From a bacterium (lineage in GTDB: Bacteria; SAR324; NAC60-12), in assembly GCA_965233585.1 (NCBI GenBank), contig CBDDTI010000477.1, positions 1 through 33,071 on the forward strand: a DNA stretch of 33,071 nucleotides, read 5' to 3'. Of the stretch, positions 4,148 to 30,700 are shown piece by piece; position 1 is the stretch's first letter, and each line of letters starts with the position of its first letter. Below the pieces are notes generated by a model, which saw only the letters and a list, made by a program, of their open reading frames with translations, was not told the origin of the DNA and ran no database searches. A program made the translations under genes and the position numbers.

Positions 4148-4149
4148 TA

Positions 4150-4825: not shown

Positions 4826-4914
4826 ATATGTATATATTTTAAAAAAACATACGGAAAACATATTATGTTTAAAAACCAAAAATGCTTATATATATATATA
4901 TTTTTCAAATTTAT

Positions 4915-5513: not shown

Positions 5514-5689
5514 AAGTAGCAATTAAAAACTAGACGACGGATGGCCCAAGAGCGTAGAGGAGCAGGGTCTTCTTTTGTTAGTATGGAGACACAATTTTAC
5601 AAACAATATATGAAAGATGTGTTATAGGCAGTCGAGAAGAGGAGTAGCAAGACAAAATAGTGAGAAGTGCAAAACAATAGTTTGCATCG

Positions 5690-6225
5690 CAAACACTTTT
5701 ACACACAGACGCTTTTACACACAAAAGCTTTTTTTTACACACAGAAGCTTTTACACACAGAAGCTTTTACACAGAGACTATTACACACAAAGCTTTTACC
5801 CACAGAAGCTTTTACATATAGACGCTTTTACACACAGATGTTTTTACACACAGACGCTTTTTACACGGACACTTTTACACACACACACACACGTTTACAC
5901 ACAGACACTTTTACACACAGACCTTTTTACACACAGGAGCTGCTTTTACACACAAACGCTTTGACACACAGAAGCTTTTACACATAGACGCTTTTACACA
6001 CAGGCACTTTTACACACAAACACTTTTACATACAAACACTTTTACACACAAACACTTTTACACACAGATGCTTTTACACGCAGACGCTTGTACACACAGA
6101 AGCTTTTACACACAAACACTTTTACGCAGAAACACTTTACACACAGACGCTTTTACACACAGACGGCTTTACACACAAGCGCTTTTACACACAATCACTT
6201 GTACACACAGACGCTTTTACACAGA
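5690..6225 (+). repeat. ~19-bp minisatellite (TTTTACACACAGACGC-like)
   Basis: Dozens of ttttacacacagac/aagc units; source of the spurious THR/YTQ ORFs. Confidence 0.9.
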
Positions 6226-6291
6226 GGCCTGCCAATGTACTCACAGCGAAGTCATCGTTGTCGTGGCGACCTCAGCAATCGGACGGGGTGG

Positions 6292-7843
6292 TGTGGCGAA
6301 GTCCTATTTCCATGTGCCTCGGAACCAGCATGTATAAACATGTCATGCAAGCTATGTGCTTTGTGGCCCCCCAACCAAGGTGGTTTGCCATCTCTTGAAA
6401 AAAAGTATAAACGGGCGGACCTGGCAGGCGGTGACCGTTTCTGGGCTGGGACACGCACAGTATTACAATATGATATATGTTGTTCTTTATGGGTTTAGGG
6501 TCCTGACTCCTGACTGTGACTGGAATTGAAACTCTTATCTTAACACTCATACATCCATCTCTATATTTTAACACTCATACATCCATCTCTATATCATATC
6601 TCTAGCTCTATCTCAATAAAAAAATATATCGATGTGTCTCTTTGTGGTAGCAGCTTATCCAGGTAATCCATCCCATCCCGGGGCCCTGACTCGATGCAAA
6701 CCTAGCTGCACAGACAAACAATGCGGACACGCAAAGCATTCAAGGACTATGATTAATGACTGTGACAGATCACATTCAGCGATGTCACGGCACAACTATA
6801 TGCGCAAAAGGAATGGGCAGCTTTATTGCTCTTCTATGGAGTCTCAGACCGTTCTGCTTGACTCACGCCGATACACTATGGTGAGACAGGATGCACTATG
6901 GTGAAACTGAATGTCTCAAGCAAAGATGCGTGCATCAGCAAGTCTCAGACAGTTCTGGTTGAGCCAAAAATTATCATAGATTCAATTGGGGGGAGGTAAC
7001 AATAGATGTACCATGGCTCATGGCAAGGCCATGGTTCACCATCACCTCCATTGAAAATTATACGACCTGAGGAGGAGCCTGGACACGTATACCTTATATC
7101 GTGTGTGCATGTGTCGATGATGGCGTGGCGAAGTCCCATTTCCATGTGAACCGGAAGAAAAAGGAAATGATGTGACTCGAAACCAGCATGTATAAAGATG
7201 TCATGAGGGCTGTGTGCTTTGGGCCCCCCAACCAAGGTGGTTTGCCATCTCCCCAAAAAGAAGTATAAACCGGCGGACCTGGCAGGCCGCGAACGTTTCT
7301 GGGCTGGGACAAGCACAGTATTACAATATGATATAATGGGATGGCCCTTGTGCCCCTTTCCATGTGCTTTTTGGGTTTAGGGTCCTGACTCCTGACTGTG
7401 ACTTCAATTGAAACTCTTATCTTAACACTCATACATCCATCTCTATATATTAACACTCATACATCCAACTCTATATCATATCTCTAGCTCTATCCCAATA
7501 TAAAATATATCGATTTGTGTCTTTGTGGTAGCAGCTTATCCAGGTAATCCATCCCATCCCGGGGCCCTGACTCGATGCAAACCTAGCTGCGCAGACAAAC
7601 AATGCGGACCTGCAAAGCATTCAAGGACTATGACTAATAACTGTGACAGATCACATTCAGTGATATCCCGGCACAACTATATGCGAAAAAAGAAATGACA
7701 GGTTTATTGATCTTCGATGGAGTCTCAGACCGTTCTGTTTGACTCACGCCGATGCACTATGGTGAGACAGGATGCACTATGGTGAAACTGAATGTCTCAA
7801 GCAAAGATGCGTGCATCAAAAAATCTCAGACAGTTCTGGTTGA
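6292..7843 (+). repeat. Tandem duplication of a ~670-720 bp complex segment
   Basis: Copy 1 ~6292-6962 and copy 2 ~7125-7843, both running from gtggcgaagtcc.atttccatgtg to tctcagacagttctggttga, separated by ~160 bp of unique sequence. Confidence 0.9.
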
Positions 7844-8214
7844 CTCATGCTGATACACATCTCATTTTCAAATCGTCTTTGCGCCAAAATGATTACATGT
7901 ATGCAAATGCTTGTGCCACCGGTGAGAGGTAAACGGAAATGCTTGCGGTCACGTTTGCTCGGACAGTTCCGGTAGCAAACAAACAAACGTTCGTGCCAAC
8001 CTCAGCAAGGAAATATTATGCTAATATGTTACCCACAAACTCCACAATCCAAAAATCAGTGAATCCCAATGTAACTTCATTAATCCATTCATATTTCTTT
8101 CAGGGTACAAGTAAGCATGCCTACTGAACATGCCAAGCAAACAAGTCAGGACTGCGTCAAACGGATGACCGGAAAACAAACATGCCAAAGAAAACAAAAC
8201 ATGTAAGCAAGGCT

Positions 8215-8830
8215 GCTTTCACACACACATTGCCGCTGTCACACAGAAACACCTTTTACACAGAAACCCTTCTGCACACACACCATTTTATACAGAGACG
8301 CTTTAAGACACAAACCTTTTACACACAGACACTTTTACACACAAAAGCTTTCACACACAGAGACTTCTACACAGATGTACTTCTACACACAAATACTTTT
8401 ACACACAAACATCTTTACACAGAAACACTCTTACACACAAACCCTTTTACACAGATACACTTTCACACACAAAAGCGTTGACGCACAAACACTTTTACAC
8501 AGTTGCACTTGTACACACGAACACTTTTACACGCAAACATCTTTACACCGAAACACTCCGACACACAAACACGTTTACACACAAACACTTCTACACACAG
8601 AAGCTTTTACACACAAACACGTTTAAACAGATGCAATTTTACATACAATCACTTTTACACACAAACATCTTTACACAGAAACACTCGTACACACAAACCC
8701 GTTTACACAAAAAGACTTTTACACACAGAAGGTTTTGCACACAAGACTTCTGCACAGATGCACTTGTACACACACAAACAATTTTACACACAAACATCTT
8801 TACACAGAAACGCTCGTACACACAAACCCC
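8215..8830 (+). repeat. ~19-bp minisatellite, second block
   Basis: Same ttttacacacaaac/acagaaac unit family as 5690-6225. Confidence 0.9.
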
Positions 8831-8837
8831 TTTTCCT

Positions 8838-9210
8838 GCGAAAGGATTACTCCAGCACACGAAAAATTGCAATTTTACCTCAGTTTTTGCCGATCGACCC
8901 TCATTTCGTGCGAAAAGGTTGCTCCGGCACACGAAAAATCGCAATTTTACCTCAGTTTTTGCCGATCGACCCTCATTTCGTGCGAAACGGTTGCTTCGGC
9001 ACACGAAAAATCGCAATTTTACCTCAGTTTTTGCCGATCGACCCTCATTTCGTGCGAAAGGGTTGCTCCAGGACAAGTAAAATCGCAACTTTACCTCAGT
9101 TTTTGCTGATCGACCCTCATTTCGTGCGAAAGGGTTGCTCCAGGACAAGTAAAATCGCAATTTTACCTCAGTTTTTGCTGATCGACCCTCATTTCGTGCG
9201 AAAGGGTTGC
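8838..9210 (+). repeat. 72-bp tandem repeat, about 5 units
   Basis: aaaatcgcaattttacctcagtttttgc.gatcgaccctcatttcgtgcgaaagggttgc at ~8863, 8935, 9007, 9079 and 9151. Confidence 0.92.
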
Positions 9211-9270
9211 GTTTCGTGCCGTCTCGTTTGCACTGCCCCTGCCCCCGCCTTCAGAAGAGAAATAGAAAAG

Positions 9271-9963
9271 AAGGAGAGAGCAAGAGGGCAAGAGGGCAAG
9301 AGGAGAAGATGTGAAGATGTGAGGATGTGAAGATGAGAAGATGTGAAGATGAGAAGATGTGAAAATGTGAAGATGTGAGGATGTGAAGATGAGAAGATGT
9401 GAGAAGATGTGAGAAGATGTGAGAAGATGAGAAGATGTGAAGATGAGAAGATGTGAAGATGTGAGGATGTGAAGATGAGAAGATGTGAAGATGAGAAGAT
9501 GTGAAGAAAGGAGAGAGCAAGAGGGCAAGAGGGCAAGAGGAGAAGATGTGAAGATGTGAGGATGTGAAGATGGGAAGATGTGAAGATGAGAAGATGTGAA
9601 GATGAGAAGATGTGAAGATGTGAGGATGTGAAGATGAGAAGATGTGAGAAGATGTGAGAAGATGTGAGAAGATGAGAAGATGTGAAGATGAGAAGATGTG
9701 AAGATGTGAGGATGTGAAGATGAGAAGATGTGAAGATGAGAAGATGTGAAGATGCGAAGATGTGAAGATGAGAAGATGTGAGAAGATGTGAGAAGATGTG
9801 AAGATGAGAAGATGAGAAGAAGATGGGAGGATGAGAAGATGTGAAGTTGAGAAAATGTGAAGATGTGAAGATGAGATGTGAAGAGGAGAAGATGTGAAGA
9901 TGAGAGGATGTGAAGATGAGATGTGAAGATGAGAAGAAGATGAGATGTGAAGATGAGAAGATG
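9271..9963 (+). repeat. AAGATGTG/AAGATGAG octamer array with a 237-bp higher-order duplication
   Basis: The header aaggagagagcaagagggcaagagggcaagaggagaag occurs at 9271 and 9508. Confidence 0.92.
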
Positions 9964-10018
9964 TTTTACAGACCCCTACTATTGGAAGAACCCTGCGCTC
10001 AGACGCTCTCGGGAAAAA

Positions 10019-11425
10019 CACAAATAACATATCATGGAAATCAAATCACTGATCGAATAAGTCAGACAAATATTTTCATTGTAGAAGACGCTTGGAACAG
10101 TTTTGAAAAAAATTGGGAGAAAGCAACCGTTTTTCAAAACACCATGCTCTCAAAAGATTCTCATCTTAGAAGACGCTTGGAACAGTTTTGATAGAAAAGC
10201 TTGGACAAAATTATCGTTTTTCAAAAACACCACGCTCTTACAGGAATCTCATCTTAGGAGAGGCTTGGAACAATTTTGATGGAAAAATGGAAGAAAATCA
10301 ATGTTTCTCAAAACACCATGCTCTCAAAAAAGTCTTGTCCTAGATGTCTCTTGGAACAATCTTGACGGAAAAATTGGGAGACAAATACCGGTTTTTTTCC
10401 AAACACCAAAAAATCATCTTAGATTTTTTTTAATTTTTCTGATAAGAAAACCTTGGGGAAAACAATTCTTTTTTTTCGATTCCTTCTGTTCGTCAAAATT
10501 CTCAACTTAAAAGTGTCTTGGAACAATTCTGATCGAAAAATTTGGAGGACATCACAATTTTTCAAAAACACCATGCTCTGAAACGATTCTCATCTTAGAA
10601 ACGCCTTGGCACAGTTCTGATAGAAAAATTGGGGGTAAGTCACCGATTTTTCAATACACCATGCCCCTCAAAGATTCCCATCTTAGAAGTTTCTTACAAC
10701 AATTTTTGCGACAAAAATTTGGGAGAAGATCACCTTTCTTCAAAACACCATTGCTCTGAAAGGATTCTCATCATAGAAATTTCTTGGAACAATTGTGACA
10801 GAAAAATTGGGAGACCATCACCGTTTTTCCAAACATCATGCTCTTAAGATTCTCATTTTAAAAGTTTTCGAAGCAATTTTGATCGAAAAATTGGGAGAAA
10901 ACCACCGTTTTTCAATTCAGAATGCTCTGATAGAAGAAAATGGGGTCAGCCATCGTTTTTTTGCTGTTAAAAGATGATGAGTTTCATCTTTTATCAAGAC
11001 ACCATGTTCTTAAAAGATTCTCATCTTTGAAATTCTTGGGTCAATTTTGATAGAAAAATTGGAAGAAAAATACCGTTTGTCAAAACCATTCTTTTAAACA
11101 CCATGCTCTTAAAAGATTCTTATCTTACAGCTTCCTTGGACCAATTTTGATAGAAAAATTGCGAAAACATCACCGTTTTTCAAAACACAATGTTCTTGAA
11201 AGATTTTTTATCTAACAGGTATTGCTCTGAAAAAATTCTCAATTTTGAAATGTTTTGAAACAATTTTGATAAAAACAAATTGGGAGAAAATCACCGTTTT
11301 TCAAAACGCCATGCTCTTAAAAGATTCTTATCCTTGAAATGTCTTGGAACAATTTTGATAGAAAAATTGGGAGAAAATCATCGTTTTTCAAAACATAATG
11401 TGCTTAAGAGATTCTCCCAATTTTT
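10019..11425 (+). repeat. ~86-bp satellite array (copy 2) with the same leader as copy 1
   Basis: cttggaac anchors at 10091, 10176, 10264, 10350 and onward; leader caaataacatatcatggaaatcaaatcactga matches ~3111-3142. Confidence 0.88.
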
Positions 11426-11454
11426 CTTTTAAAAATTAGAAATTTCTGAGGTGG

Positions 11455-11890
11455 ACAAGCATGGCAAGAAATTCCATGCGTTCCAAGACGCTTTTGAGAT
11501 CAGAAATTTTTGAAGGCATGGTATTTTGAAAAATGTTCCCAGGGCATGCTGTTTTGAAAAACACTGATTTTCACCAAGTTTTTCCATCAAAATTTTCCCA
11601 AGGCACTTCTAAGATGTAAGAGCATGGTGTTTTGAGCAACAATAATTTTCTTCCAGGTTTGCTATCCAAGAGACTTCTAAGATGAGATTTTGTGAAGAGA
11701 AGGGTGTTTTGAAAAAAATGATTTGTCGATTTGTCCCAAATTTTTCTTTCTATCATATCTGTCCAAGAGACTTCAAAGATGGGAATCTTTGAAGAGCATG
11801 GTGATTTGAAAAAGGGTGGTTTCTCCCAGTTTTTTTCAATACTGTTCCAAGCGTCTTCTACAATGAAAATATTTCTCTGACTTATTCGAT
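11455..11890 (-). repeat. Inverted copy of the ~86-bp satellite including part of its leader
   Basis: The reverse complement of 11845-11892 is gatcgaataagtcagagaaatattttcattgtagaagacgcttggaac, matching 10051-10098. Confidence 0.85.
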
Positions 11891-14023
11891 CTTTGTGTGG
11901 GGTTCTTGTTTTTGATTCTGTATCCCGGGCTCCTCCGCCTTCCGCCTCCTCCCGCCGATACTCACATACCAGAACTTCACACACACTCACACACACAAAT
12001 TTAACATACAATAACTTCACACACACATACCATAACTTCGCACACACAAATTTAACATACTATAAATTCACACACACTCAGACAAACACACAACTTTGTC
12101 ACATACCATAACTTCACACACAAATTTAACATACAATAACTTCACACACACACACAGTCCCGTAGGTACGTTTGCACGGGTCCCGGGGAGGTGTCTTCGT
12201 TGGTCACCGACCCCCCCCGGGACCCCGGTGACCCCCTGCAAAATAAGAAGTTTTACATCTATTCAGATTGTACACACACACGCCCCACCGCGGCGGGGCA
12301 GATGAAATGAAAATGAAAGTGAGGTGACAATGAAAATGAAATGAACATTTCCTAACCAGGACGCGAAGAAGGGAACGCAAAAGAAGAGGGACAGAGAGAA
12401 CACCAACACGACACACCTGGCCCGGAACGGGCAAACCCTGAAAAGGCAAGGGAAAAGAAAAGCTGAGGCCGACGGGCAACGGAACAAGACTAGCGGAGGG
12501 GGGGAAGGACGGAAGCGCCTGAACCAACCTAACACGGCGAAAACCCACGCCTACCTCGGCACGCGCAGGACCCAACCTACCTAAAGAGAGGGGAACGCAG
12601 AAACACATGAGAAAGGGGGCCCATGGGGGACAGGTTAATAAAATGATGCAACCACAACGCATGCAAAAATCTTGATAAGGCTGAAAGGCCCTCGGTATTC
12701 ATTTCACAACCCTCTGGACAGCTTATGGGTTCAACCCCTGAATTACGTGCACAATTGAACCTCACCAACGACCATAAAAAGAAAGAATCACCACACCTGC
12801 AGGAATGTCCTGAAGCCTTCATGTCATGGTGAAATTGTCGAGCCCCGTACTCTCTTGGGCATCATTGAAAAAAAGGATGTTGTCGCGGCTTTCAGTAGGC
12901 TACTCTGGAAATGCAGTCACTCTGAAAAGGTGAGTCCCTGGTACAGCGGGCAGCTGTTGCAACACAACGACATCAACGAGTGAGACCAGGAAAGAAGGCC
13001 AGCAGTTCACATTACTCAGACGAATTACTAATTCAAAAGTAAATTCAGACATCGTTTTACTGTCCAGTGTTAGCCTAGAAAGGCTTTCCCTGAAAGGTTC
13101 CTGCCAACTTGACGTATGCAGCAGGAAAGACACACTTGCTCAAAAATATCTTATCGAATTACTGATGTGGAATACATCGGACGTGCAAAGAAAACTCAGT
13201 TAAACCTAACAGGAGAAATGAATATATATAAGGAACTTCCACAAAAGTTGGTGTTTTCAACATGTTTGGTGTTTTCAGATATTCCTGTAGCACGTGGGCA
13301 TGCGGCAACATGATCTTTTTAGCTGCAACAGGGACAAGTGTTCCAGATGTGTGATGGCGTTGAAAGTGTTCGAATGGGCTCATACTTTTACAGAAACTAT
13401 AGCATGTTGTGTGCTTTGAATTTTGAACATGTGTCAGTTGTAAGTTGTACTTAGACTTCAGAAAATTAAGCAACTCAAAGGAAATAGCGCAGAGATATGG
13501 CTTATCTGCGCAGAATATGAAGCACATTCAAACACATTCCTGTCGTTTCATTCCCGTCCGCAAAGAACCATCACTCCTCTATTAACAAGACAGTTGAACG
13601 TTACGCACTTTAAATATCTTAAACACTCTTGTGCTGTAATATGATTGTCCTTTTCCCTCCACAAATACTAGATCACTAACCCCTGCTGCTGCTGCTGCTG
13701 CCGCCGCTGCTGCTAAACTCAATTTGCTTTCATCCTGACATTCTTCCTTTCCAGAGGGGTTTTAACCAACCACTTCTTGGCCTCAACACCTTGCCCTGAA
13801 AAAAAATCCACCTTGCCAAGGTGCTAAACCTGATGTCTTTCTTGTTTTGAAGCTTGAATCTTCTCTCCCTTTCCCACATAATTTGATATTATATACTACA
13901 TCTGTCTACTCCAACTGGGTGACGCTGAAAAGGCACCGTCCAGAATAAGGACTTGAAGTGAGACATCATGACATCGTAGGAACAATATCTCTCCACTTTG
14001 TGGAATATCATTTAGTCCTCAAA

Positions 14024-14294
14024 GTGGAGAGCTCTTCCTAGAAGAGCTCTCCACCAGTACTTCAAAACATTCAAAGCCAGTACCAAATATCCCTAGCTTC
14101 GGTGATCCCAACCAACTTTGCACAGTAGCAACCAATGCTGCTGGAAAGGAAGGTGGAGAGCTCTTCCAAGAAGAGCTCTCCGCTTTGCAACCAACAGCAG
14201 GCATTCCAAAGTGGAGAGGGATTGGTCAACCGTGGCCAAAATCAAACTTGACACGGGGTAGGGGTGGAGAGCTCTTCCAGGAAGAGCTCGCCGT
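14024..14294. repeat. Three spaced ~31-bp palindromes GTGGAGAGCTCTTC-NNN-GAAGAGCTCTCC
   Basis: Copies at 14024-14054, 14153-14183 and 14264-14294, with different intervening sequences. Confidence 0.85.
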
Positions 14295-14304
14295 CCCCCC
14301 GAAA

Positions 14305-14458
14305 GGAATTTCTCGCCGCCCTCCAAACAACCGGAATACCTCGCCGCCCCCCTGTTGAAAATTCCTCGCCGCCCCCCGAACAACCGGAATACCTCGCCGC
14401 CCCCCTGTTGGAAATTCCTCGCCGCCCCCGAAACAACCGGAATTCCTCGCCGCCCCCT
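14305..14458 (+). repeat. Six-unit GC-rich tandem repeat (AATTCCTCGCCGCCCCCC) with two alternating linkers
   Basis: ctcgccgccc occurs six times, alternating with ..aacaaccgg.. and ..tgttg.. linkers. Confidence 0.85.
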
Positions 14459-15148
14459 TCTCAGAAAAAAATGCGGAAAACCCCGATGGCTTACCCTTGG
14501 AATCCTTTAGTGGCCCTTCGTATGGGAGAAGCTAACTGATGGCAGCCAAGTGCCCCTAATAGTCACTTTTGGACAGTTCGCAATTTCGCAAGAGTAAATA
14601 CTGACTATGCTTAGTTTATTCTTAAATAAGTGGCTATATTCCCTGACTACTGGAAGTCTAGCATTCTCTTGGCCTAGTAAGGTTTGGAACAATTGTCATT
14701 AAAATTCAAAATGCGCAAAAGATTTCGCACTGCTGCTGCAACACCCGGCCAAAACTGAAAACACAAAAGCTTTGAACATGGAGCCCCCTAAGAACTTCTT
14801 GCCATCGATCAGAATCATATAATCAACACATTCATGGTGGCACTACTTCCATGTTGGTTTTCAACAAAAATCATATCCTAAGCCAACCAATACCGAAAAC
14901 ACCAAAAGTGTTGAAAACACTAACTTTTGTGAAAGTTCCTTATATATATATATATAAATAAATATATATATATGGGACTATGGTGGCCACCAGCTGCGAT
15001 TTAAATGCGCCCAGGTGCACCACCACAGTCCCCGCAGGTACGTTTGCACGGGTCCCGGGGAGGTGTCTTCGTTGGTCACCGATCCCCCCTGGACCCCCGG
15101 TGACCACCTGCAAAAATAGAAGTTTTACATCTATTCAGATGGTAACAG

Positions 15149-16945
15149 TTTTGCATGGCAGGCATGGCCCAATCTCACATCCACTTTCGTTTTGCATGGC
15201 AGGCGTGGCACAATCTCACAGCTGCCTTCGTTTTGCGTGGCAGGCGTGGCGCTCATGGGCCTGGGTGGCGCGCTTGGGCCGGTTTTGTCACGGATGACGC
15301 CGCGGCACTTTGCGTGGCAGGTGTGGCAAAAATCTCAAACTTAACTGTTTTGCATGGCAGGCGTGGCGCAAGCTCACATCCACCTTCGTTTTACATGGCA
15401 GACGTGGCACAATCTCACATCCGCCTTCGTTTTCGCGGCAGGCGGCGTGCCGCTCATGGGACTGGGTGGCGCGCTTGGGCCGGTTTGGTCGCGGATGACG
15501 CCGCGGCACTTTGCGTGGAAGGCGTGGCGCACATCCACCTTCGTTCTGCATGGCAGGCGTGGCACAATCTCACATCCGCCTTTGTTTTGCGTGGCAGGCG
15601 TGCCACTCATGGGACTGGGTGGCGCGCTTGGGCCGGTTTGGTCGCGGATGACGCCGGTACTTTGCGTGGCAGGCGTGGCGCACTCTCACATCCACCGTCA
15701 TTTGCATGGCAGGCGTGGCGCAATCTCACATCCGCCGTCGTTTTGCATGGCAGGCCTGGCGCAATTTCACATCCGCCTTCGTTTTGCGTGGCCGGCGTGC
15801 CGCTCATGGGGCTGGGCGGCGCGCTTGGGCCGGTTTGGTCGCGGATGACGCCGCGGCACTTTGCGTGGCAGGCATGGCACAATCTCCCATCCACCGTCGT
15901 TGTGCAGGCGTGGCGCAATCTCACATCTGCCTTCGTTTTGCGTGGCAGGCGTGGCGCTGATGGGACTGGGTGGCGCGCTTGACTCTTTGTGGCACACTCT
16001 CACATCCACCTTCGTTTTGCATGGCCGGCGTGCACAATCTCACATCCGCCTTCGTTGTGCGTGGCAGGCGTGGCACTCATGGGACTGGGTGGCGCGCTTG
16101 GGCCGGTTTGGTCGCGGATGGCACCGCGGCACTTTGCGTGGCAGGCGTGGCGCACATCCACCTTCGTTTTGCATGGCAGGCGTGGCGCAATCTCACATCT
16201 GCCTTCGTTTTGCGTGGCAGGCGTGCCACTCATGGGACTGGGTGGCGCGCTTGGGCCGGTTTGGTCGCGGATGACGCCGAGGCATTTTGCGTGGCATGCG
16301 TGGCAGGCGTGGCGCAATCTCACATCCACCTTCGTTTCACCTGGCAGGTGTGGCGCAATCTCACGACCTTCGTTTTGCGTGGCAGGCGTGGCACTCATGG
16401 GACTTGGGCCGGTTTGGTCGTGGATGACGCCGCGGCACTTTGCGTGGCAGGCGTGGCACAATCTCACATCCACCTTCGTTTTGCGTGGCAGGCGTGGCGC
16501 AATCTCACATTCACCTTCGTTTTGCGTGGCACGCGTGGCACTCATGGGACTGGGTGGCGCGCTTGGGCCGGTTTGGTCGCGGATGACGCCGCGGCACTTT
16601 GCGTGGCAGGCGTGGCGCAATCTCACATCCACCTTCGTTTCACGTGGCAGGCGTGGCGCAATCTCACGTCCGTCTTCGTTTTGCCTGGCAGCCGGTTTGG
16701 TCGTGAGTGACGCCGCGGCACTTTGCGTGGCAGGCGTGGCACCATCTCACATCCACCTTCGTTTTGCGTGGCAAACATGGCGCAATCTTTCATCCACCTT
16801 CGTTTTACGTGCAGGGGTGGCACTCATGGGACTGGGCGGCGCACTTAGACTGGTTTGGTCGCGAATGACGCCGCGGCACTTTGCGTGGCAGGCGTGACGC
16901 AATCTCACATCCACCTTCGTTTTGCGTGGCAGGTGTGGCACTTAT
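15149..16945 (+). repeat. GC-rich composite minisatellite (TTGCGTGGCAGGCGTGGCGCAATCTCACATCCACCTTCG with a GGGACTGGGTGGCGCGCTTGGGCCGG subunit)
   Basis: Many copies of a ~40-45 bp subunit interleaved with a ~85 bp subunit; explains the AWQAW/RGRRG/VAGVA ORFs in all frames. Confidence 0.92.
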
Positions 16946-16957
16946 GGGGCGTGCTTG

Positions 16958-17040
16958 GCTCGCCTCCCGCCTCGTCTCCCGCCTCGCCCCCGCCTCGCCT
17001 CCCGCCTCGCCTCCCGCCTCGCCTCCCGCCTCGCGCCTCC
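16958..17040 (+). repeat. CCCGCCTCGCCT dodecamer repeat (G-rich on the minus strand)
   Basis: Direct reading of 16958-17040. Confidence 0.8.
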
Positions 17041-19377: not shown

Positions 19378-20030
19378 ATGGCTCTCGGCCCGCATGGACA
19401 AGCGGCTTGGAGCGCGGCACGGCATGTTGGCTTGAAGAATTTAGGGAACAGCTGCTGGCCCAATGCGGTGTTGCAATGTATTCGGTGGACTCGCTTGCTG
19501 TACAATGCTTCACGACTCCGTTGATGAAATGGGAAGAATCGATTCTGGGATCGTTGGTGCAAGATGTTTTACAGAAACGTGCAAGCGACGACAGGGATTA
19601 TGTTGCACCATTTGCTGTTCTCAATCAACTGTATGCAACCTACCAAGGAAAATTTCGACCTGGTGAGAGCGCAGATGCAGCAGAAGCTTGTCGCTTGTTG
19701 ATAGACCGGTGTGTCAACGGCAGTGATAATGTTCATTTACTGCCAACGATGTGAAGGCGCACCCATTTCAAAGGCATCAGCGGTGGCCACAAAAGCGGCG
19801 TCATTTCCTATGTCCACTGCTGCAGCGGAATCTCCGTCTGAACAGCGTCGTAAGAAGACGTCGTGACAGCATTGCACGGGAGAAGATTTTTTTCTGTAAT
19901 TATGATACACATCTTTCTGTACATATCATGAAATGGTTTGACGCAATGTGCAAAGAACCGTTTGATGCTGAGCAAAATTGGTTGTGTGTTTCTGAATATA
20001 AGGTGTGAAGAATCATTCTGGCCCGGAAAG
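19378..20030 (+). pseudogene. Frameshifted ubiquitin-specific protease (USP, peptidase C19) catalytic-domain fragment
   Basis: 19426-19479 translates as VGLKNLGNSCWPNAVLQC (USP Cys box). After a frameshift, the 19344 ORF frame gives ..FRPGESADAAEACRLLIDRC (QxDAxE-like box) at a typical distance. The 19751 ORF frame gives HLSVHI..EPFDAEQNWLC (finger-like). No His box seen. Confidence 0.75.
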
Positions 20031-21064
20031 CAACATTTCTTGATCCGCAATGAGTTAGGAGTAGCTTCCAGTAAGATTTCATTGGCTGCCCCACTCATGT
20101 TGTAGCAAAATCGCACGCATGAAGCCTCTTTGTGTTTGCTACTAGCTCAGGTGCCCATCCAGTGAGCTTCTTGGACGGAGGAAAGGCGCGTGTCGCATGG
20201 CCCGACAATGAGTCCACGAGTCTATGTCCTCAGGAGCAAGAGCTTTGACCCAATGTGGGAAAAAGCGTATGCAGATTCATCGCGAACCGACACCTATTTG
20301 AATGTCTATGATGCCTGTGTGTTTCTAAAATTTGTGGTTGGTTGACATATTTTGTCAGGTAATTTTTTGTATGTCATCATCGTCGGATTCCTGGCTGTAG
20401 GAAAGGCGTGGTTGTCACGTAGCACATCTCGTAGCACAGAAGATAATGGAATACCTCATTCAGCCGATTCCAGATCCGCAGTGCTCCCGGATGGAGAGCA
20501 GGTGACATTGCAGCGCTGGCCAAAAAAATGGTCTGCACTGTCGCGCACACAAATCATCTTTCATACGCCGCATCTTTCACACGCAACTTACATACATACA
20601 TACATGCATACATGCATACAAACAAAACGAAAAACCCCACAGGATGGCTCTCCTAGTAACGCCGGAAGATTAGCAGTTGATCCTGTCTATATGCCAGGTA
20701 TGATTACCAGCCACAGGGTATGCAGAAAGAGTTCGCAAAATTCGCGGCTGCGCCCGAAAGAGTGCAGAACATTACCTTGGTCAGCGGAAGTATGGTGAGC
20801 AGACCATCGCTTTGATAGCAGAGCCTGGTGGAACTCGAAGCAAGCGGAGCAACTTACTCACAAACAACCTACTCACAAACAACTTACTCTACATACAGAC
20901 ATACATACATAGATACATACATACATTACTATCTTTTCACACACTTTCTTGCTTTGTCACACACCCTCTTTCACATTCTACTTTAACACACACAACTGTT
21001 TTAACTTCTTTGAAGCTCATTATTGGAAGAAGTTGACTTGTGGGGTTATCCGTTCCTTTAATTT

Positions 21065-23760
21065 ATCAAAACGGTTCCAAGAGATTTCTAAGATAAGAAT
21101 CCTTTAAGGACATGGTTGTTTTGAAAAACGTTGATTTTCAACCACTGACTTCTGAAAAGAGAATTTTTCAAGTGCATGGTGGTTCTAGCAACAGTAATTT
21201 CCTATCAATTTTTCTATGAAAATTGTTCCAAGAAACTTTTAAGATGAGAATATTTTGAGAGCACGGTGTTTGAAAAAACGGTGATTTGCTCGCTTTTTTC
21301 CATCAAAAAAATATTCCAAGATATTTCTAAAATATTTTTTTTTAAAGTACGGGATTTTGAAAAACGATGATTTTCACCCAATTTTTCTATCAAAATTGTT
21401 CCAAAAAAATTCGACGATGAATATTTAATAAGAACATGGCCTTTTGAAAACGAATAATTTTTCCCTATTTTTTGCAAAATTGTTCCACGAAACTTCAAAA
21501 ATGAGAAAGAATTTTTTGAGAGCATGGTGTTTTGAAAAACGGTGGTTTCCGCCAATTTTTTTGAAAATTGTTCCGAAATATCTAAAGTGAGCATTTTTGA
21601 GGAGCACGGTGTTTTGAAAAACGGTGATTTTCGCCTAATTTTTCTTCCATTTTTTTGCGAGACATTTCTAAGAAATTGCTAAGATGATTTTTTTTTCAAA
21701 ATATGATAATTGAAAAACGATGCTTTTCTCGCAATTTTTAAACCAAAAATGTTCCAAAAGATTTCTAAGATAAGAATCTTTTAAGGGTATGATATTTTGA
21801 AAAATACGGATTTTCTATTTTTTTCCATAAAAATTATGTCAAAAAAATTCTAAGATATTTTTTTTTTAAAATCCATGATAATTTGAAAAATTAGGAGAGG
21901 AGAATTATCAATTTTCAAAATATCATAATCTTAAAAAATTCTTATTCGTCAAATTTATAAATAATTTTCATTTTTCAAAATACCATTTTCTCAATAAATT
22001 TAAATCTTTGAAATTTCTTGGAATAATTTTGATGGAAAAATTGGGAGAAAATCGTCATTTTTCAAAATTTCATGTTCTTAAAAAATTCTTATCTTAGAAT
22101 TGTCTCGGAAAAAAATTGTTGGAAAAATAGGTAGAAAATGATCGTTTTTCAAAATATAATGTTCTGAAAAAAATTGATCTTAGAAATTTGATATTTTTTT
22201 TGCAAAAAAATGGGGGTGAGGCCCATCTATTTTCATAAATTCGTATCTGAGAAATTTCTTAGAATTCTTTATATAAAAATTAGATAAAAATTATTATTTT
22301 TCAAAATGCCACGGCCTTAAAAAATTATTATAGAAATTTTTAAAAATAATTTTGAAATTTTTCAAAATATTATGCATTTAAAATATTCTTATCTCGGATT
22401 TTTTTTTGCAATAATCTGAATAGAAAAATTAAAATAAAACTATTATTTTTCAAAAAATCATGCTTTTTAAAAAAATACCTCAAAAATTTCTCGGCAGAAT
22501 TTTAATCAATAAATTAAAAATTATTATTTTTCAAAATACCATGCTATTAATAGATTTTCATCGTGGAAATTTCTTGGAATAATTTTAATATAAAATATTG
22601 GGAAACAATTATTATTTTTCAAATTATTATGTCCCTCAAAAATTCTTAGCTTAGAAATTTCTTGTAACAATTTTTCAAAAAAAATTGGGAGGAATTTACC
22701 ATTTTTTTACTTATCATATTTTTAAAATAAATTCATCTTAGAAATTTCTTCGAACAATTTAATTAAAAAAAATTAGGTTAAAATCATTATTTTTCAAAAT
22801 ACCATGCTCTTAAAAAATTCTTATTTTAGAAATATTTTGGAAGGATTTTGAAAGAAAAATTGGACGAAAAATACGAATTTCAAAATATTATATTCTTAAA
22901 TGATTTTTATCTTAGAAATATTTTGGAATAAATTTAATTTAAAAAAATGGGAAAAATTACCATTGATCGAAATATAATGCTCTTAAAAAATCCTTATCCT
23001 AGAAATTTCTTGCATAATTTTGATAAAAAAAATTAATCAAAATTATTCTTTTTCAAAACATCATGATATCATCTTAAAATACATTTGGAATAATTTTAAT
23101 AAAAAATAAAAATCAATTTAAAAAATTGGATTTTTTTTTTCAAAATATTATGCTTAAAAAAAATCTGGCTCTCCAATTATTGTCATCTTTGAAATTTCTT
23201 GGAAAAAAACTATTAGAAAAAAATAATCAAAATTATTAAATTTTTAAAATATTTAATTCAAATAAATTTATTCCCGAAATTTCTTGGAAAAAAAAAACCT
23301 TAATATTTCTTATTTTAGAAATATCTTCGAATTCGAATCTTTTTAATAATAAAATTTGGAGAAAATTATTTTTTTAAATTTACATGCTCTTAAAAAAAAT
23401 ATAGATATTTTTTGGAACAATTTTGACAAAAAAATATCGGAACCATTTTTAATAAAAAAAAATGCGGACGGAACAAAATTGAATTCAATATTATTTTGGA
23501 AATATTTTAATAATTTTAATAAAAATATCGGAGAAAAACATAATTAAAAATTATATTTTTTAATAATTGTTATTTTCGAATTTTTTCTTTAACTTTTAAT
23601 TTTTTAAAAAAAAATATATGATTCTTTTTCAAAGCTCCATTGTCTTGAAAATTTTGATTCTAAAATTATCTTGGAAAAAAATTAATACAATAATAAGGAA
23701 GAAATCACCGTTTCTCAAATTATTATGTTTTTTAAATATTTTTATCTTAGGAATACAAAG
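21065..23760. repeat. ~86-bp satellite, minus orientation to ~21880 then plus orientation, progressively AT-eroded
   Basis: aaattgttccaagaa..agcatggtgttttgaaaaacggtg units first, then tttcttggaataattttgatggaaaaattgggagaaaatc units from ~22015 with increasing loss of G and C. Confidence 0.8.
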
Positions 23761-23819
23761 TGGAAAATACAAAGAATATCGATGTCAATTTTTCTGCAAA
23801 TATCCCTGTCAGGAATTCA

Positions 23820-24237
23820 ATGTATAAAATAATTAATTTTATTCCTCCCAATAATTTACAACCAAAAAAAATCATTAATAATTTTTTTCCATAAATAATA
23901 TTTTTATATTTAAATTAATATAATTCAAATATTTTATTTAAATTAATTACTTAATAATTTTTATTAAAAAAATATTAATATATTTATATTATTCCCAAAT
24001 TTCATATAATCAAAATTTCCAATCGAAAACTTAATAATTACCAATATATTATTTTTTTCCAATAAATAAAAATAATATATATAAAAATTTAGATAAATTA
24101 TATAAAACTAATATAATATAAAAAATATATATAATATATATAAAAAAATATATTTAAAAAAATAATATATTAAAATTATATAAAAAATATTATTTAAATA
24201 AATTAAATATAATTATATTAAATTAAATTTATATATA
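23820..24237. other. Near-pure A/T tract
   Basis: Very few G or C; abrupt return to normal composition at ~24238. Confidence 0.85.
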
Positions 24238-24279
24238 TGAGTTGTGTTTTAAATGTCTTGCATGGCGGCACCAAACAAG

Positions 24280-25180: not shown

Positions 25181-25419
25181 TAAACACGGAAGTTTAAAAC
25201 ACGGCTCATATCATAATTACCAGTAGTACCGCACAAGGCGATGGCGGAAGTTTCAAAAATAGGAAACCTATAGGAGAAGTTGGTTGTTGTGAATCAGGGA
25301 TGGCAGAGCGAAGCCACTGATTGACCGAAAGGTGGTTGGAATTGTGTTTGCCGGAATGGTTGCAATGGTTGCAGTGGTCACCTCACCCAGAACTGCTGGA
25401 TGTAGTGTGATGTATTGCA

Positions 25420-25755
25420 ACTGGAGTTGTAGTTGTAGCGTAGTGGAGTTGTATGTGGTGTAATGTAATTAGTGTAGTGTAGTTGCAGTTATATAGTTGT
25501 AGTTGTAGTTGTTTTGTAGTTGTTGTAGTTGTAGTTGTTGTGTGGTTGTAGTTGTTGTGTAGTGTAATTGTAGTAGTAGTAGTTGTTGTTGTTGTAGTTG
25601 TAGTTGTTGTTGTTGCTGTTGTTGTAGTTGTAGTTATAGTTGTTGTTGTTGCTGTTGTTGTTGTAGCTGTAGTTGTTGTAGTTGTAGTTCTAGTTGTAGT
25701 TGTTGTGTAGTTGTAGTTGTTGTTGCTGTTGTTGTTGTTGCTGTTGTTGTTGTCG
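25420..25755. repeat. Compound (GTT/GTA/GCT)n microsatellite
   Basis: Direct reading. Confidence 0.92.
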
Positions 25756-25844
25756 TCGAAGTTAGGGTAGTTAAGTTAGTGAAGTTAGTTAAGTTAATTA
25801 ATGTCTACTTTTTCGACATCTTCACGTCAAAAAAGGCTCAAAAC

Positions 25845-26262
25845 CCTCAGTTTTTTACACTTTTGACTTCGAAATGTGCTTCGCGCCACAACGGCGTGCA
25901 CTTTTTCGACATCTGAACCTCCAAAAGTAGTCCGAGACCGTCAGTTTTTAATACTTTTGACTTGGAAACGTGCTTCGCGCCACAACGGCGTGAACTTTTT
26001 CGATATCTAAACCTCCAAAAGTAGTCCGACATTGGTGTGTTTTGTACATTTTGACTTCAAAATATGCTTCGTGCCACAACGGCGTACGCTTTTTCGACAT
26101 CGCAACTTCCAAAAGTGGTCCGACCATGGTGTATTTTGTACATTTTAACTTCAAAATATGCTTCGCGCCACAACGGCGTATACTTTTTCGACATCTCAAC
26201 TTCCAAAAGTAGTCCGCTCCTCTAGTGTTTTGTTCATTTTAACTTGGAAATGTGCTTCGACG
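25845..26262. repeat. ~94-bp tandem repeat, about 4.5 units
   Basis: tttt(g/a)actt.(g/a)aa..tgcttcgcgccacaacggcgt at ~25861, 25956, 26049, 26143 and 26237 (last unit partial). Confidence 0.9.
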
Positions 26263-26499
26263 TACACTTTTCATGTCTCATCTAGCCAGCTAGCTCCGCA
26301 CCCGCCGCTTTAACGAGCCTACTTTTCGACCCTCCGGAGTTACAAATCATTGGAAAAACACAGTACATCACAACGTTCCTATTTTTTCGCGCACCCACCT
26401 CTTCTTTCTTCTAATCTTATCTCTTCTAACTCTTCTCATCTCTGCTTTTCAACTATCCATATTGTCGAAAATTTCACTTCTAAACTTCTTTCAATTATT

Positions 26500-27185
26500 T
26501 AAAAAAATATTAATATCACCAAAAATAATATTTTTTAAATATAATAAATATTTATATTACCAAATTCAAAATTATTTCACCAAACAACACTAAATCTCAT
26601 CAAATACCATACCTCCCATACAATTACCCGCGACATTCATAGCGCCAAACCAAAACTATCCCACAAAATCAAAATTAATACCATCAAAAAATATATAATA
26701 TACAAAATATAAATTACATATAAATAAATATAAATTATGTAAATATATAATTAAAAATAAATAAATTATATATATAATATATGTTTATATATTATGTTTA
26801 TATATTATGTAAAATAAATAAATTCTATAAATAAAATATATATAGGTATATTATACCTAAATATATTATATTTAAATATAATATACCTATATATTATATT
26901 TAAATAAATTATATATAAGTCTTATATTATGTATAATAGTTATATATATATATATATATAAATAAATATTTTATAAAAAAAATATTTATACATATATTAT
27001 ATATATACAAATAATTATATAAATTGTCGATCAAAAGACGCAATAGGAAACAAGCGAAAATATACAATCAAAAAGAATAACCCCCGCACAAATATATAAG
27101 GAATTAAATATAAGTATCAATCAAAAAAGAAACACAAATAATAAAACATCCTGGAATCCAAATCACTGCTCCAATAAATCAGACC
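26500..27185. repeat. AT-eroded paralogue of 4915-5530 plus the satellite leader
   Basis: caccaaacaacactaaatctcatcaaataccatacctcccatacaattacccgcgac (26578-26633) aligns to 5014-5070; 27025-27183 aligns to 3003-3160. Confidence 0.85.
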
Positions 27186-27762
27186 ACAGGGTTTCTGCAT
27201 CCGTCCGCAATCCGGGCCACTGCCCCAACAGTGGGGTGAATGTTGTCAGCACCGTCCAACAGTTACACAACAGCAGGCAAATGGTACACACAAAGTTTCT
27301 GCTCTACGCAACTGCCCTATGCTGTCCAGGTCACTGTTCCACCACTTGGAACCATGTTTTGTGTGGAGTTGTTGTGGCTGCTCCAACAGGTGGACCAATG
27401 CTGTAAAGCAGGCATCTGGTGCGCTTAAAGCTTCCGCAGTCCAGGCCATTGCTCCCACAGTTGGACCAATGTTGTCAGCAGGCAACCGATGCATACATAC
27501 CTTCGAAGAAGGGGGGGAAGAAGCCAGCGGAATATTAGCAGGCTCTTAGAAATTCTTTTCTGATAGTTCTCATCCTGCTTTGCTCTTCAAAACGATACTG
27601 GGAATGCGACGAAACAATTTTCATACATTTATTGATACTTTTTTCCGGGATTTCTGCGCGTGCCATTTTCAAAGACTAATTAAATGAATTGCTCTTGCAG
27701 GGACAAATCTTGAACATCTGCAAACCCGTGAGCTGGCCAGTGGCAACTACTAGTCATCACGC

Positions 27763-30700
27763 TCAATCATCGTCGTCGTCGTCGTCATAGCCGCACACCT
27801 GAAACCAAGATGCGGCGCGATAACGATGGGATCCAAGGTGCTCCAAGATCTATTAGAACGTCCGAGAAACTGCAAGTTTGTAGTCCCCTGACGCAGATGA
27901 ATCAGACTCCTGATCATCAGGCGTCGGACCGCACCAGGTAGCCAAAAAATTGCGCCAACATGGGCTCCAGATAGCAAAAGATATTTTTTGGCAGACTTCT
28001 CGCGGCCACCCCCTGCAGCGACACCAGCATACAAGCTTCATAGCGCACACCGCACTCTGAGAGCAGCACCCTGTAGCAGCACCCAAGTTGACCTCCACAG
28101 CGCATATGCCACTGTAAGCATCACTCTGTTGCAGCGGCACCCGCATGCCCGCTCCAAAGCATACACAGCAGCACCATCCAGCAGCGCCCTGCACTGGCAC
28201 CAGCATGCCCGTTCCAATACGTTGCGCCACTCTGACAGCAGCACCCTCAAGCAGCACCGCGCAGTGCACCAGCATACCCCAAAGCGCAAACACTACTCTG
28301 AGAGCAGCGCCCTCCTGCAGCGGCGTGCACCGCTCTAGCAGCAGCACCCTTAAGCAGCACCCTGCAGCGGTACCGTGCCGCGGCACACCAACGCGCGCGG
28401 ACAGCACTTGGAGAGCAGGGCAACTTGCAAAGCAGCACCTGTCAGTGGCAGCAGCACCTTCACGCAGCTTGCAGCGGCCTTCCTGCAGTGGTGCCAGCAT
28501 GCTGCAACGCGCGCACACCACTTTGACAGCAGCACCCTCAAGCAGCACCTTGCAGCTGCACCTCGCAGCGGCACCAGCATGCCTGCTCCAAAGCGCATAC
28601 ACCTCTGATAGCAGCACCCTCAAGCAGCACCCTGCAGCGGGTACCCTGCAGCGGCACCAGCATGCCCGCCCCCAAACACAGACATGCAACTCCTCCTATA
28701 CTTGAAGTAAGAAACACCAATAACTTCGCTATCTAGAGAACCAGGGCTGGATTTGCTGTGCCTGACGCCAACGCTTTAGCGAAGCAAAAAGATTTTCCCT
28801 GAACTTCAATTGGGTGAAAAAGTGTGCTGGTGATCGTGTTTTCGTGATTCCGCGGCTCCTCCAGTTCCTCTTGGCTGATGATCTTGCCGAAAGTCGTGTT
28901 CATGTCGACTTTCATGCGAGTTTCCACCTGAAATGCGCCACCAAAGAGCCACAACACAGGCACAGCGCAGGAACATGAGAATACGATAGAGAACATTACG
29001 ACCATGGGCTGAGTCTTCAAGCTGGAGGTGCTTCGGGAAGGAACACGACGGTCAACATCAGCAGCATGAACCTGCACAAGCTGAAAACGATAGAAATATC
29101 TAGCTCCACAAAAGAAAACTTGCTGACAACTGCTTTTGTCTGGTGTGTCTCGTGCCCAATGCTTGACAGCCACCATCCATAATCCAAATATGCGACCACA
29201 GGCCATGGAATTGGTGGGTGCGGATATTCGTAGCCTCAGACCGAAGATCGGCTTTGAGCCAACGGTGTCACTTGCAGGCCCATCTGTTCCATTTCAGCGC
29301 AAACCGCCTTTGCTGCACAGAGAACTTTTGTCTGTGATTGCCAGTAAATGACTCCGAACATTGGTGATCCATTTCGATAGAAAACTAAGATTTCTTGTGA
29401 ACTTCCCATCACCGAAGTCACGGAACACAAACTGTCACTCCGCCTCTCTGTGGCCTTCGAACTCTGATATCTAAAAGCTCTGCAATGAATGCAACTGATG
29501 TGCGGATGGAAGGAATCTGGTCCGGTGTCAACTCCTCGGACCCCAAAACACCGGCGTTGCCGGAAAGCTTGAAGAAAACGCAGCGTTGAATTAACGGCGT
29601 GGTTCCGGACATGTTTGGGCGAATTTGTTCCGAGCTGCTGGATGGAAACTCAAAACGTCAATTGTTCCGACCACTGGCAGCATGAATGTGTGAAATGTGA
29701 AGAGCCCAAACCAGACTTTCGTCCCAAACCTCAGTTCAGCTCCGCTGACAGTGTTCGTGACAATTCCATTGCTTGCTGACCTAAAAATCACACACTGTCT
29801 CACTTGGACCAGACAGAGATTCTTGCAACAGAGTAGCTCCAACTCAGGTGCTTCAATGACGTTGCCAGCCAGCATCATCCACATGATGAACCTGAGAGCT
29901 TCAGCCAAATACAACATCAGCATTGTGAAACACAACGCCTCTGCTGGGTCCTTTTTGCAGCAACAATTGCGTTGAGTGGCAGAGTCGCCATGAAAAGGAA
30001 GAGGTGGATCTGCACAGCGGAGCACGCTTCAACAGACTTCAAAACTTGAGGCCCAGGGGTAAGTGACGAAAGCTAGCTTGGCAGGGGGCTTGGCATGAAA
30101 ACACCGAGTAGCCTCACAAACTCATCTGTATCAAAGGATATTATGTCCAAGACCAGGCTTTGAATGTCTTGGTTTGGGATGAACGGGACACATTGAAGGT
30201 GGATCAATGTCACATAAAGAGAGCAAAATTTTGTATCACACGTGTACATAATGAGGAAACTCCCGCTCAGTAGTGTGGTGGTCACTAAAGAGGAAGAAGA
30301 TTCAAGGGTCCACCTTCAGCATCGGAGTGGACCTTGAAAGGCTTAGAGGCTTAGAAGTTGCAAGAAAAGAAGAGGTTGAAAGCGTGGCTAGGTAGATGTC
30401 ATGAGGGCAAAAAGAGGAAGCATGCCTGTGCAATTGCTCCGGAAGATCTTTGCAAACTCACCTGCATGAAGGAATACTATGTCCAAGAAAAGCTTGCCAT
30501 TGTGAGAACTAGCCCTAAACTACATGACAGATGTCAAAGACCTAATTAAAATTTGGAATACTCATGTTTGGATCATACAATTCTGCAGGACGGCCTCTTG
30601 GAAATTGCTATGGTTTTACTGGGTTACCTCGTCGTGTCCGATGCTGGATTTAAATGAACAAATCTTGATGCTCAGAAATATGTGCGGAGCATCTGGAAAG

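Follow-up and report, generated by a model that had tools for sequence, protein, structure and literature searches.

A dispersed, array-carrying non-coding element with Helitron2-like ends in repeat-dense, probably dinoflagellate DNA

Non-autonomous Helentrons that carry and spread satellite-like arrays are established in Drosophila, mites, mosquitoes and oysters, according to the accounts cited here (PMC4067079, PMC7492417). Elements of the Helitron2/Helentron type (HLE2) are described as having terminal inverted repeats that are short and often asymmetric and as inserting at T|T, with T strings of variable length and no target duplication (PMC11417382, PMC4067079, PMC5148889). A 3′ stem-loop is described for HLE2 and HINE elements, and HINEs are further described as bearing a microsatellite and central tandem repeats (PMC7492417). 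For dinoflagellates, the cited literature consists of Helitron mentions at the level of RepeatMasker (PMC9087856) and a single report of a Rep-helicase, in a Helitron2-like element of Symbiodinium microadriaticum (PMC8788227). Here we describe M1, a 4.5-kb element in a stretch of 33,071 bases (contig CBDDTI010000477.1, referred to as the window at its full length) that is probably dinoflagellate DNA. A sequence-only reading of the same stretch had proposed that most of it may be a nested family of non-autonomous rolling-circle elements that generate and spread minisatellites, M1 being one of several such modules. We elaborate on the boundaries, family and layout of M1, on the readings that compete for it, and on the other repeat modules of the window (M2, M3 and a composite repeat termed unit U).

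M1 occupies positions 5530-10013 on the minus strand, with limits set by self-comparison (alignment A1), by self-BLAST and by a 5′ boundary that holds across its family. A repeated segment, the "head" of unit U, runs uninterrupted through 2990-3150 and 27009-27184; a third direct copy is split into 5425-5529 and 10014-10070 around 4484 bp of foreign sequence (alignment A1), and self-BLAST likewise pairs 2993-3107 with 5425-5529 and 3104-3922 with 10014-10864. The two uninterrupted heads therefore establish 5530 and 10014 as true boundaries, within the ambiguity of a homopolymer, and both positions had been correctly picked as element ends from the sequence alone. The ends of the insert coincide with these positions apart from an A5 run (plus strand) that is present on both sides, the filled site reading A5-insert-A5 and the intact heads having a single A5 or A6. 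The empty target sites lie at 3103-3107 in head copy 1 and at 27123-27128 in the AT-decayed head copy 3. The run at 10014-10018, T5 on the minus strand, abuts the 5′ end of M1 and is the same run as in both empty sites, which identifies it as the oligo-T of the host. The second T5, at 5525-5529 beyond the 3′ end, may be a T-string borne by the element or a 5-bp target duplication; because the target is a homopolymer, these two are not separable at M1.

Other genomic copies of M1 were sought through a proxy, namely predicted "proteins" translated from them. A query of 40 residues, translated from the flank through T5 and the 5′ arm into the adjoining 8-bp array, gave 367 matches to such proteins at E ≤ 0.01, 120 of them listed. 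The similarity begins abruptly at (F)FPRASERR..., equivalent to the junction T-run|CCCGAG, in 117 of the 120 listed matches. Upstream of this point the sequences are mutually unrelated (89 distinct 12-residue flanks among the 117 anchored matches listed), and F immediately precedes P in 116 of these 117. Among the 90 distinct flanks in the listed matches, the F-run has a length of 0 in 1, 1 in 19, 2 in 65, 3 in 4 and 4 in 1; with 84 of the 90 at one or two residues, the T-run is narrowly ∼4-5. Downstream, the order is the 8-bp array, the same spacer and a 72-bp repeat, followed in the longest matches by a 16-bp array, and 75 of the 120 listed matches run on into peptides of the 72-bp repeat, in any of three frames. 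In the listed matches, 279-705 nt (median 492) separate the arm from the nearest 72-bp unit, versus ∼795 nt in the window copy, so array length differs between copies of the family. The translation of part of the core (6948-7376, minus strand) gave 36 database matches whose alignments switch among three reading frames, which marks the core as a multi-copy non-coding DNA repeat. In one match, P0073, the T-run of a 94-bp unit like that at 25807-26259 in the window is immediately followed by an M1-family copy, and the T-run at this junction is no longer than the 94-bp unit's own; this makes P0073 a second, independent oligo-T target. These data support M1 as a non-coding mobile element from a dispersed, high-copy family, with micro- and minisatellites of its own that it carries and spreads.

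From 5′ to 3′ on the minus strand, M1 opens with an arm and an 8-bp array; past a spacer come a 72-bp array, a pair of 16-bp arrays that enclose a core, another arm and 15 nt, followed by T5. The 5′ arm (9974-10013, delimited by local alignment) begins CCCGAGAGCGT right after the T-run, and 117 of the 120 database matches listed conserve it as (F)FPRASERRVLPIVGVCKT. The arrays were delimited with Tandem Repeats Finder (TRF). The microsatellite-like 8-bp array beside the 5′ arm (9298-9963, 81.8 copies) begins ∼50 nt from the 5′ end, and the 72-bp minisatellite (8832-9210) has 5.3 copies at 94% match. The proximal and distal 16-bp arrays (8241-8827 and 5696-6223) match each other at 73-77% in self-BLAST. 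Between them lies the 2-kb core (6230-8240), the central segment outside the arrays, which self-comparison shows to contain a tandem duplication (6312-6962 versus 7170-7843, 89% identical). The 3′ arm (5545-5586) is subterminal, being separated from the 3′ boundary by a 15-nt spacer (5530-5544 in alignment A1) that ends in CTAG on the minus strand. The two arms form an inverted repeat with a local alignment score of 16, equalled by 0 of 2000 shuffles, and agree at 10 of their first 11 nt; the repeat is asymmetric, with the 5′ arm terminal and the 3′ arm 15 nt internal. Folds compared with shuffles revealed a terminal hairpin at neither end. A scan of the window for this end pattern (a T-run, an 11-nt arm, its reverse complement with at most one mismatch, and a T-run within 50 nt) recovers M1 and is swamped by inverted 88-bp arrays; composition shuffles yield 7-30 matches each, so the scan is non-discriminating.

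We put at about even chances the reading that M1 is a non-autonomous element of the Helitron2/Helentron type (HLE2, HINE-like) moved at oligo-T by a partner Rep-helicase. The oligo-T target, the boundary T strings, the asymmetric inverted repeat, the non-coding content, the 5′ microsatellite with further tandem repeats and the high copy number make mobilization in trans the likeliest route. An HLE2-type Rep-helicase encoded elsewhere would act on M1, which would travel as a single-stranded DNA intermediate and integrate at oligo-T without a true target duplication; the T5 beyond the 3′ end would then belong to the element. The arrays would ride inside M1 as cargo, and would then grow or shrink by slippage or unequal exchange. 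Insertion at TT or oligo-T with boundary T strings, a feature of HLE2 and HINE elements, is found in M1 at the two empty sites, at P0073 and in 116 of the 117 anchored matches listed; the inverted repeats, of which the 3′ one lies upstream of the terminus, agree as well, and the HINE layout of a 5′ microsatellite with central tandem repeats is seen in M1 and is common to 75 of the 120 listed matches.

Several observations weigh against this reading. No 3′ hairpin was detected in M1, the fold of 5525-5600 (minus strand) having −1.7 kcal/mol and z +1.05, with 170 of 200 shuffles as good; because the 3′ stem-loop is missing, M1 is said to work like HLE2 and HINE elements and is not filed as a proven member. 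The inverted repeat of M1 exceeds the 11-16 nt quoted for HLE2 and is also less perfect. The window contains no Rep-helicase among the 284 open reading frames (ORFs) scanned for domains, out of 388 stop-to-stop ORFs of at least 45 aa, the 104 left out being of 45-56 aa. The AAAAA on both sides of the single filled site is also compatible with a 5-bp target duplication. The 3′ end is defined from the window copy alone: a 91-aa ORF that spans it (5324-5596, minus strand) had no phmmer matches among 1.84 billion representatives, and no 7-mers of the 3′ region occur in 163 fetched proteins. The family matches may stem from several related assemblies, so 367 is no copies-per-genome figure. Finally, the assignment of the host lineage rests on one named match at 70% identity.

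The sequence-only reading had tied M1 to the other modules through a shared end grammar, in which unrelated arrays end on the minus strand in CTRR|T after a GC-rich subterminal motif or hairpin, opposite-type ends start with T|TCCC, and short motifs recur at both ends of a module. The strings themselves stand where they were reported on the minus strand (CTAG|T at 5530, CTGG|T at 25220 and 27934, T|TCCC at 10014 and 3082). As a grammar, CTRR|T does not hold up: it occurs at 145 sites on the two strands, ∼1 per 228 nt, which is chance level. Of 40 array edges, 7 have an outward-facing CTRR|T no more than 100 nt away versus 7.8 for random placements, and 18 have one no more than 200 nt away versus 13.6 ± 3.0, with 201 of 2000 random placements as good. 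Nor was a subterminal hairpin seen at the proposed 3′ ends 5530, 25220 and 27934 (z +1.05, −0.97 and −1.17, with 170, 28 and 22 of 200 shuffles as good); folds of the last 36-76 nt gave z +1.05/+0.75, −0.97/−0.82 and −1.17/+0.57, respectively. M1 reads CTAG and then T5 at its 3′ boundary in the one copy seen; any given end would carry CTRR by chance with a probability of 4/256, and the CTAG may be coincidental. Position 3082 falls as an opposite-type start, the head being continuous through it in all three direct copies, and the sole discontinuity nearby (3075-3078, relative to the inverted head) is 4-7 nt away. For 25220 and 27934, self-comparison of the window found no second copy of either flank. 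The motif TGTGGGGTT does recur at 11896 and 21039 (with its reverse complement at 20633), as a bare 9-mer without extended similarity (1123 of 2000 shuffles as good), and one copy simply belongs to the inverted head. Similarly, the GAAGTTT/AAACTTC pair was located at 25247 and 26482, and such a pair is expected by chance, because the window has 14 occurrences of GAAGTTT, 11 of them on the plus strand and 3 on the minus strand. The TC/CTRR string grammar is thus without discriminating power in this window, and boundaries must come from empty sites and many copies.

M2 contains a (GTT)n/6-bp array (25425-25753) and a 94-bp array (25807-26259), both found with TRF, and has candidate ends at 25220 and 26488. 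Starting from the GAAGTTT/AAACTTC pair, it shows a weak gapped inverted similarity between 25247-25338 and 26392-26488 (25 of 1000 shuffles as good). Of the 120 listed matches, 4 (P0073, P0112, P0143 and P0153) have the 94-bp unit next to an M1-family copy at another locus, which makes the unit a dispersed repeat. M3 consists of a degenerate array of ∼80-110 bp period (28011-28684, delimited by array self-similarity) with candidate ends at 27935 and 28764. It is bracketed by a short inverted repeat (27965-27985 versus 28719-28738, 17 of 2000 shuffles), which extends to arms of 27935-27985 versus 28719-28764 (8 of 1000 shuffles), the left arm lying one base from 27934. The inverted-repeat signals of M2 and M3 are suggestive, and are not significant after the roughly fourteen such tests made. 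The plus strand at 26382-26445 has T6, a GC-rich 12-mer and then a degenerate (CTTCTCAT)-like tract, which resembles the 8-bp array of M1 (82% identical over 44 nt, aligned to 9473-9515). A related element directed rightwards, into the AT-rich block, may have its 5′ end here.

Unit U is made up of an AT-rich segment, a GT-rich heptamer tract, the ∼160-nt head and an 88-bp array. Its head copy 1 (2990-3150, plus strand; self-comparison, alignment A1) is accompanied by the split copy that houses M1 (5425-5529 and 10014-10070), the AT-decayed copy (27009-27184) and an inverted copy (11886-11965). Neither a 22-nt stretch of the 88-bp unit nor a 25-nt stretch of the head had any match in bacterial and archaeal contigs. 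A segment of ∼66 nt is present in the three direct heads (∼3076-3147; 5508-5529 with 10014-10050; 27096-27170), is missing from the inverted copy (11886-11894) and is flanked by the short direct repeat GAT(A/C)GA; M1 sits inside this segment. In the 88-bp array, copy 1 is collinear with copy 2 save for ∼80 extra nt at 3923-3999 (junction near 10864 in copy 2). At 10051-11891 the 88-bp arrays stand head-to-head as a foldback, in which the outer 83 nt are 93% complementary and the inner units ∼70-75% alike, and the inverted symmetry is carried on by the flanking heads and GT/CA tracts, more widely over 5170-12150. Near 21900, 88-bp arrays meet in a second inverted junction. The nature of M2, M3 and unit U as elements is unproven.

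A different kind of carrier is found at 13222-14949, where terminal inverted repeats of 55-62 nt (93% identical, 0 of 2000 shuffles as good) are flanked by TA-runs and enclose three copies of a ∼30-nt palindrome (14020-14055, 14150-14187 and 14263-14293) and a 28/53-bp array (14305-14457). It is best read as a classical terminal-inverted-repeat element, which would be a second kind of array carrier in the window. The region of this element is bracketed by a 120-bp direct repeat (12153-12272/15024-15144, 92% identical), whose second copy abuts a GC-rich 41/153-bp array (15148-16960). This direct repeat was considered as a Helitron 3′ end and rejected; it has a GC-rich hairpin (z −2.17, 5 of 200 shuffles as good) but no terminal CTRR.

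The significant inverted repeat of M1, the A5 on both sides versus a single A5/A6 in the empty sites, and the presence of a putative classical terminal-inverted-repeat element with internal repeats in the same window would all fit a cut-and-paste transposon resembling a miniature inverted-repeat transposable element (MITE), inserted at an oligo-T/A target with a 5-bp duplication. We regard this as unlikely, since the left arm begins 15 nt inside the boundary set by the empty sites, the bases that flank the two arms are not duplicates (terminal repeats with a flanking duplication are thus not seen), and the outermost bases of the two ends are not complementary. The inverted repeat also speaks against M1 as a composite, SVA-like non-autonomous retroposon, read in plus-strand sense, with a short A-tail and inserted by a long interspersed nuclear element (LINE) endonuclease at an A-rich site with target duplication. 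The plus strand does have a conserved end followed by an A-run in 116 of the 117 anchored copies listed, the run is longer in a few (F-run of 3-4 residues in 7 of the 117 listed), and the sites of LINE endonucleases resemble such an A-rich target. Yet an added tail, which the sequence-only reading had named as a mark of retroposons, is not seen: the A-run equals the host's own, and is no longer, at both sites with a known pre-insertion sequence. The run is ∼4-5 in 84 of the 90 distinct flanks of the listed matches, and no reverse-transcriptase remnant was found in the ORFs scanned; a retroposon origin is accordingly given very little weight. Least probable is that most modules are canonical (Helitron1-type) non-autonomous Helitrons, which would begin with TC at the 5′ end, end in CTRR before a T and carry a subterminal GC-rich hairpin or repeat. 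The window does contain the literal motifs, M1 has CTAG|T as its 3′ boundary and a 5′ junction that admits the reading T|TC, and the inverted-repeat signals fall in the three modules singled out by the sequence-only reading (0 of 2000, 25 of 1000 and 8 of 1000 shuffles). Against this, canonical Helitrons (HLE1) insert between A and T with a 5′-TC start, whereas the 5′ flank of M1 is a T-run, with T and not A in the window and in 116 of the 117 anchored family copies listed. The GC-rich hairpin expected ∼10-12 nt before the 3′ end is absent at M1, 25220 and 27934 alike, CTRR|T is no denser than chance predicts and shows no enrichment at array edges, and boundary evidence is lacking for 25220, 27934 and 3082. 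TC and CTRR signals are, moreover, described as widespread and prone to many false positives (PMC11417382).

Beyond M1, the question is how much of the window was built by transposition. The claim that rolling-circle elements spread minisatellites survives for M1, which is mobile, high-copy and array-carrying and has ends suggestive of the rolling-circle superfamily, and is not shown for the other modules. That most of the window is of rolling-circle origin is not shown, because other mechanisms appear to be at work, 13222-14949 being a predicted classical terminal-inverted-repeat element and the 88-bp arrays a foldback or inverted duplication. A wider proposal is that the "unclassified" tandem repeats of Symbiodiniaceae were mainly built by a diverse, hairpin-less, Helitron2-like non-autonomous branch, each family with its own asymmetric inverted repeat and satellite cargo, and M1, M2, M3 and unit U being nested members; we consider it doubtful. 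If it were true, rolling-circle transposition would be the chief generator and disperser of satellite DNA in dinoflagellate chromosomes. Somewhat less doubtful, though still improbable, is a rival proposal: outside M1 and the terminal-inverted-repeat element the window would be no nest of transposons, and its satellite-type DNA would owe its form to unequal exchange, inverted duplication and decay. Unit U repeats head-to-tail (2990-5424, then 5425 onward) and also occurs in a large inverted duplication (arms 10051-10133/11809-11891, 93% identity), 5 of 8 array-flank pairs are without an inverted repeat (640 to 1000 of 1000 shuffles as good), and AT-decayed copies (21040-24240 and 26490-27180) point to long residence. 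This proposal is opposed by the different arrays found behind the head in different copies, by the dispersal of M2's 94-bp unit to other loci and by the weak inverted repeats around M2 and M3.

The AT-decayed blocks at 21040-24240 and 26490-27180 have 16-27% GC and represent decayed unit U, with 88-bp arrays, AT segment, GT tract and head. Comparison of the decayed arrays with GC-normal copies gave 124 C>T plus G>A changes versus 26 reverse changes, and 21 of 33 substitutions in the decayed head are C>T or G>A. The shifts to GC-normal DNA are abrupt, at ∼24240, 26490 and 27180. Classical repeat-induced point mutation (RIP) was considered as the cause of these blocks and rejected, there being no CpA/CpG preference (CA 34%, CC 38%, CG 45%, CT 39%).

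The window as a whole is assembled from nested composite repeats. It consists mostly of tandem arrays (87 rows in TRF, corresponding to some twenty different arrays, with periods of 3-334 bp), and its GC content per kilobase ranges from 16% to 63%. ARAGORN found no tRNAs in it, and no Rfam matches at gathering scores were obtained. None of the ORFs scanned has a convincing protein domain, and transposase and reverse-transcriptase domains, like those of Rep-helicases, are absent from them. Gene-like sequence is confined to 18175-19748 on the plus strand, where a ubiquitin carboxyl-terminal hydrolase gene (UCH, PF00443) is present in frame-shifted form and its matches to database proteins are spread over frames 1, 2 and 3. 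The relatives of this copy fall into clusters of several members, up to 56, and the best named relative is a Cladocopium goreaui protein with 70% identity. Because of this relative, the window, a gene-poor stretch of eukaryotic DNA dense in tandem repeats, is treated as probably from a dinoflagellate of the Symbiodiniaceae type. A decayed gene is possible at 28733-30028 on the minus strand, where three long ORFs of 186, 137 and 145 aa, each in another frame, overlap; one of them has a sub-threshold Pfam match to Autophagy_act_C (E 0.0074, 16.7 bits versus a cutoff of 24.4). ESM Atlas look-alikes for the ORF at 28733-29293 (minus strand) and for the 5′ ORF of M1 gave sub-threshold, low-complexity leads only. 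Two further Pfam calls, YqfI-like and SprT-like, arise from array translations (8642-9250, minus strand, and 15146-16707, plus strand) and were rejected as artefacts, the cutoffs being passed only by summing repeat units and by no stretch alone. This is a pitfall for the automatic annotation of the source genome.

Most repeats in the huge genomes of dinoflagellates are unclassified. M1, with its sharp bounds, high copy number, four tandem arrays and Helitron2-like ends, offers a concrete and testable source for part of this repeat fraction. We rate as new in M1 the hairpin-less ends, the long arms, the several arrays and the new host lineage. Satellite-spreading elements are in print for Drosophila DINE-1, mite and mosquito HINEs and oyster Cg_HINE, in the accounts cited (PMC4067079, PMC7492417), while for dinoflagellates no description of HINE-like or satellite-carrying Helitrons was found in the full-text literature, the HELIANO supplement of PMC11417382 aside. 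M1 would extend transposon-seeded satellites from flies, mites and oysters to alveolates, in which a Helitron2-like transposase has already been reported (PMC8788227).

Among known systems, two are comparable to parts of the window outside M1. Foldback-type elements have inverted arms of tandem units, as formed likewise by the 88-bp arrays at 10051-11891, and tandem-repeat-bearing MITEs combine terminal inverted repeats with internal repeats in the manner of 13222-14949, which is known from sequence alone. Canonical Helitrons (HLE1) share with M1 the literal CTAG followed by T at the 3′ boundary, the non-autonomous state and perhaps the lack of a target duplication; they differ in that the target of M1 is oligo-T rather than A|T, that M1 has no hairpin 10-12 nt from its 3′ end, and that inverted repeats are present.

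The element of Symbiodinium microadriaticum (PMC8788227), as reported, places an HLE2-lineage transposase in the window's probable organism family, a link to M1 by lineage. The Fusarium elements FoHeli1-5, in the description cited (PMC5148889), resemble M1 in having a terminal 5′ arm and a 3′ arm upstream of the 3′ terminus. FoHeli1 and FoHeli2 end, like M1, in a T-run ("ATTTT"), and the FoHeli3-5 group is, like M1, without a 3′ hairpin (PMC5148889). The FoHeli elements differ from M1 in being autonomous, with arms of 12-16 bp, in their target preferences and in that internal satellite arrays are not described for them; their 3′ arm lies 20-50 bp from the end, versus 15 nt in M1, or 20 nt counting T5 (PMC5148889).

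The closest comparison is with HINEs (Drosophila DINE-1 and those of mite, mosquito and oyster, the last being Cg_HINE), as far as the cited accounts describe them (PMC4067079, PMC7492417). M1 differs from these in lacking a 3′ palindrome or stem-loop, in its imperfect arms of ∼40 nt (10 of the first 11 match), and in combining four arrays with a 2-kb core in a total of 4.5 kb; its host is probably a dinoflagellate, and its autonomous partner is only inferred. Like HINEs, M1 is non-coding and high-copy, sits at an oligo-T/TT site with boundary T strings variable in number, and has inverted repeats near both ends. The microsatellite-like tract in its 5′ module, followed by central tandem repeats, likewise corresponds to their layout. 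In HINEs, related flanks can carry arrays, so that satellite-like DNA disperses, and the same holds for M1.

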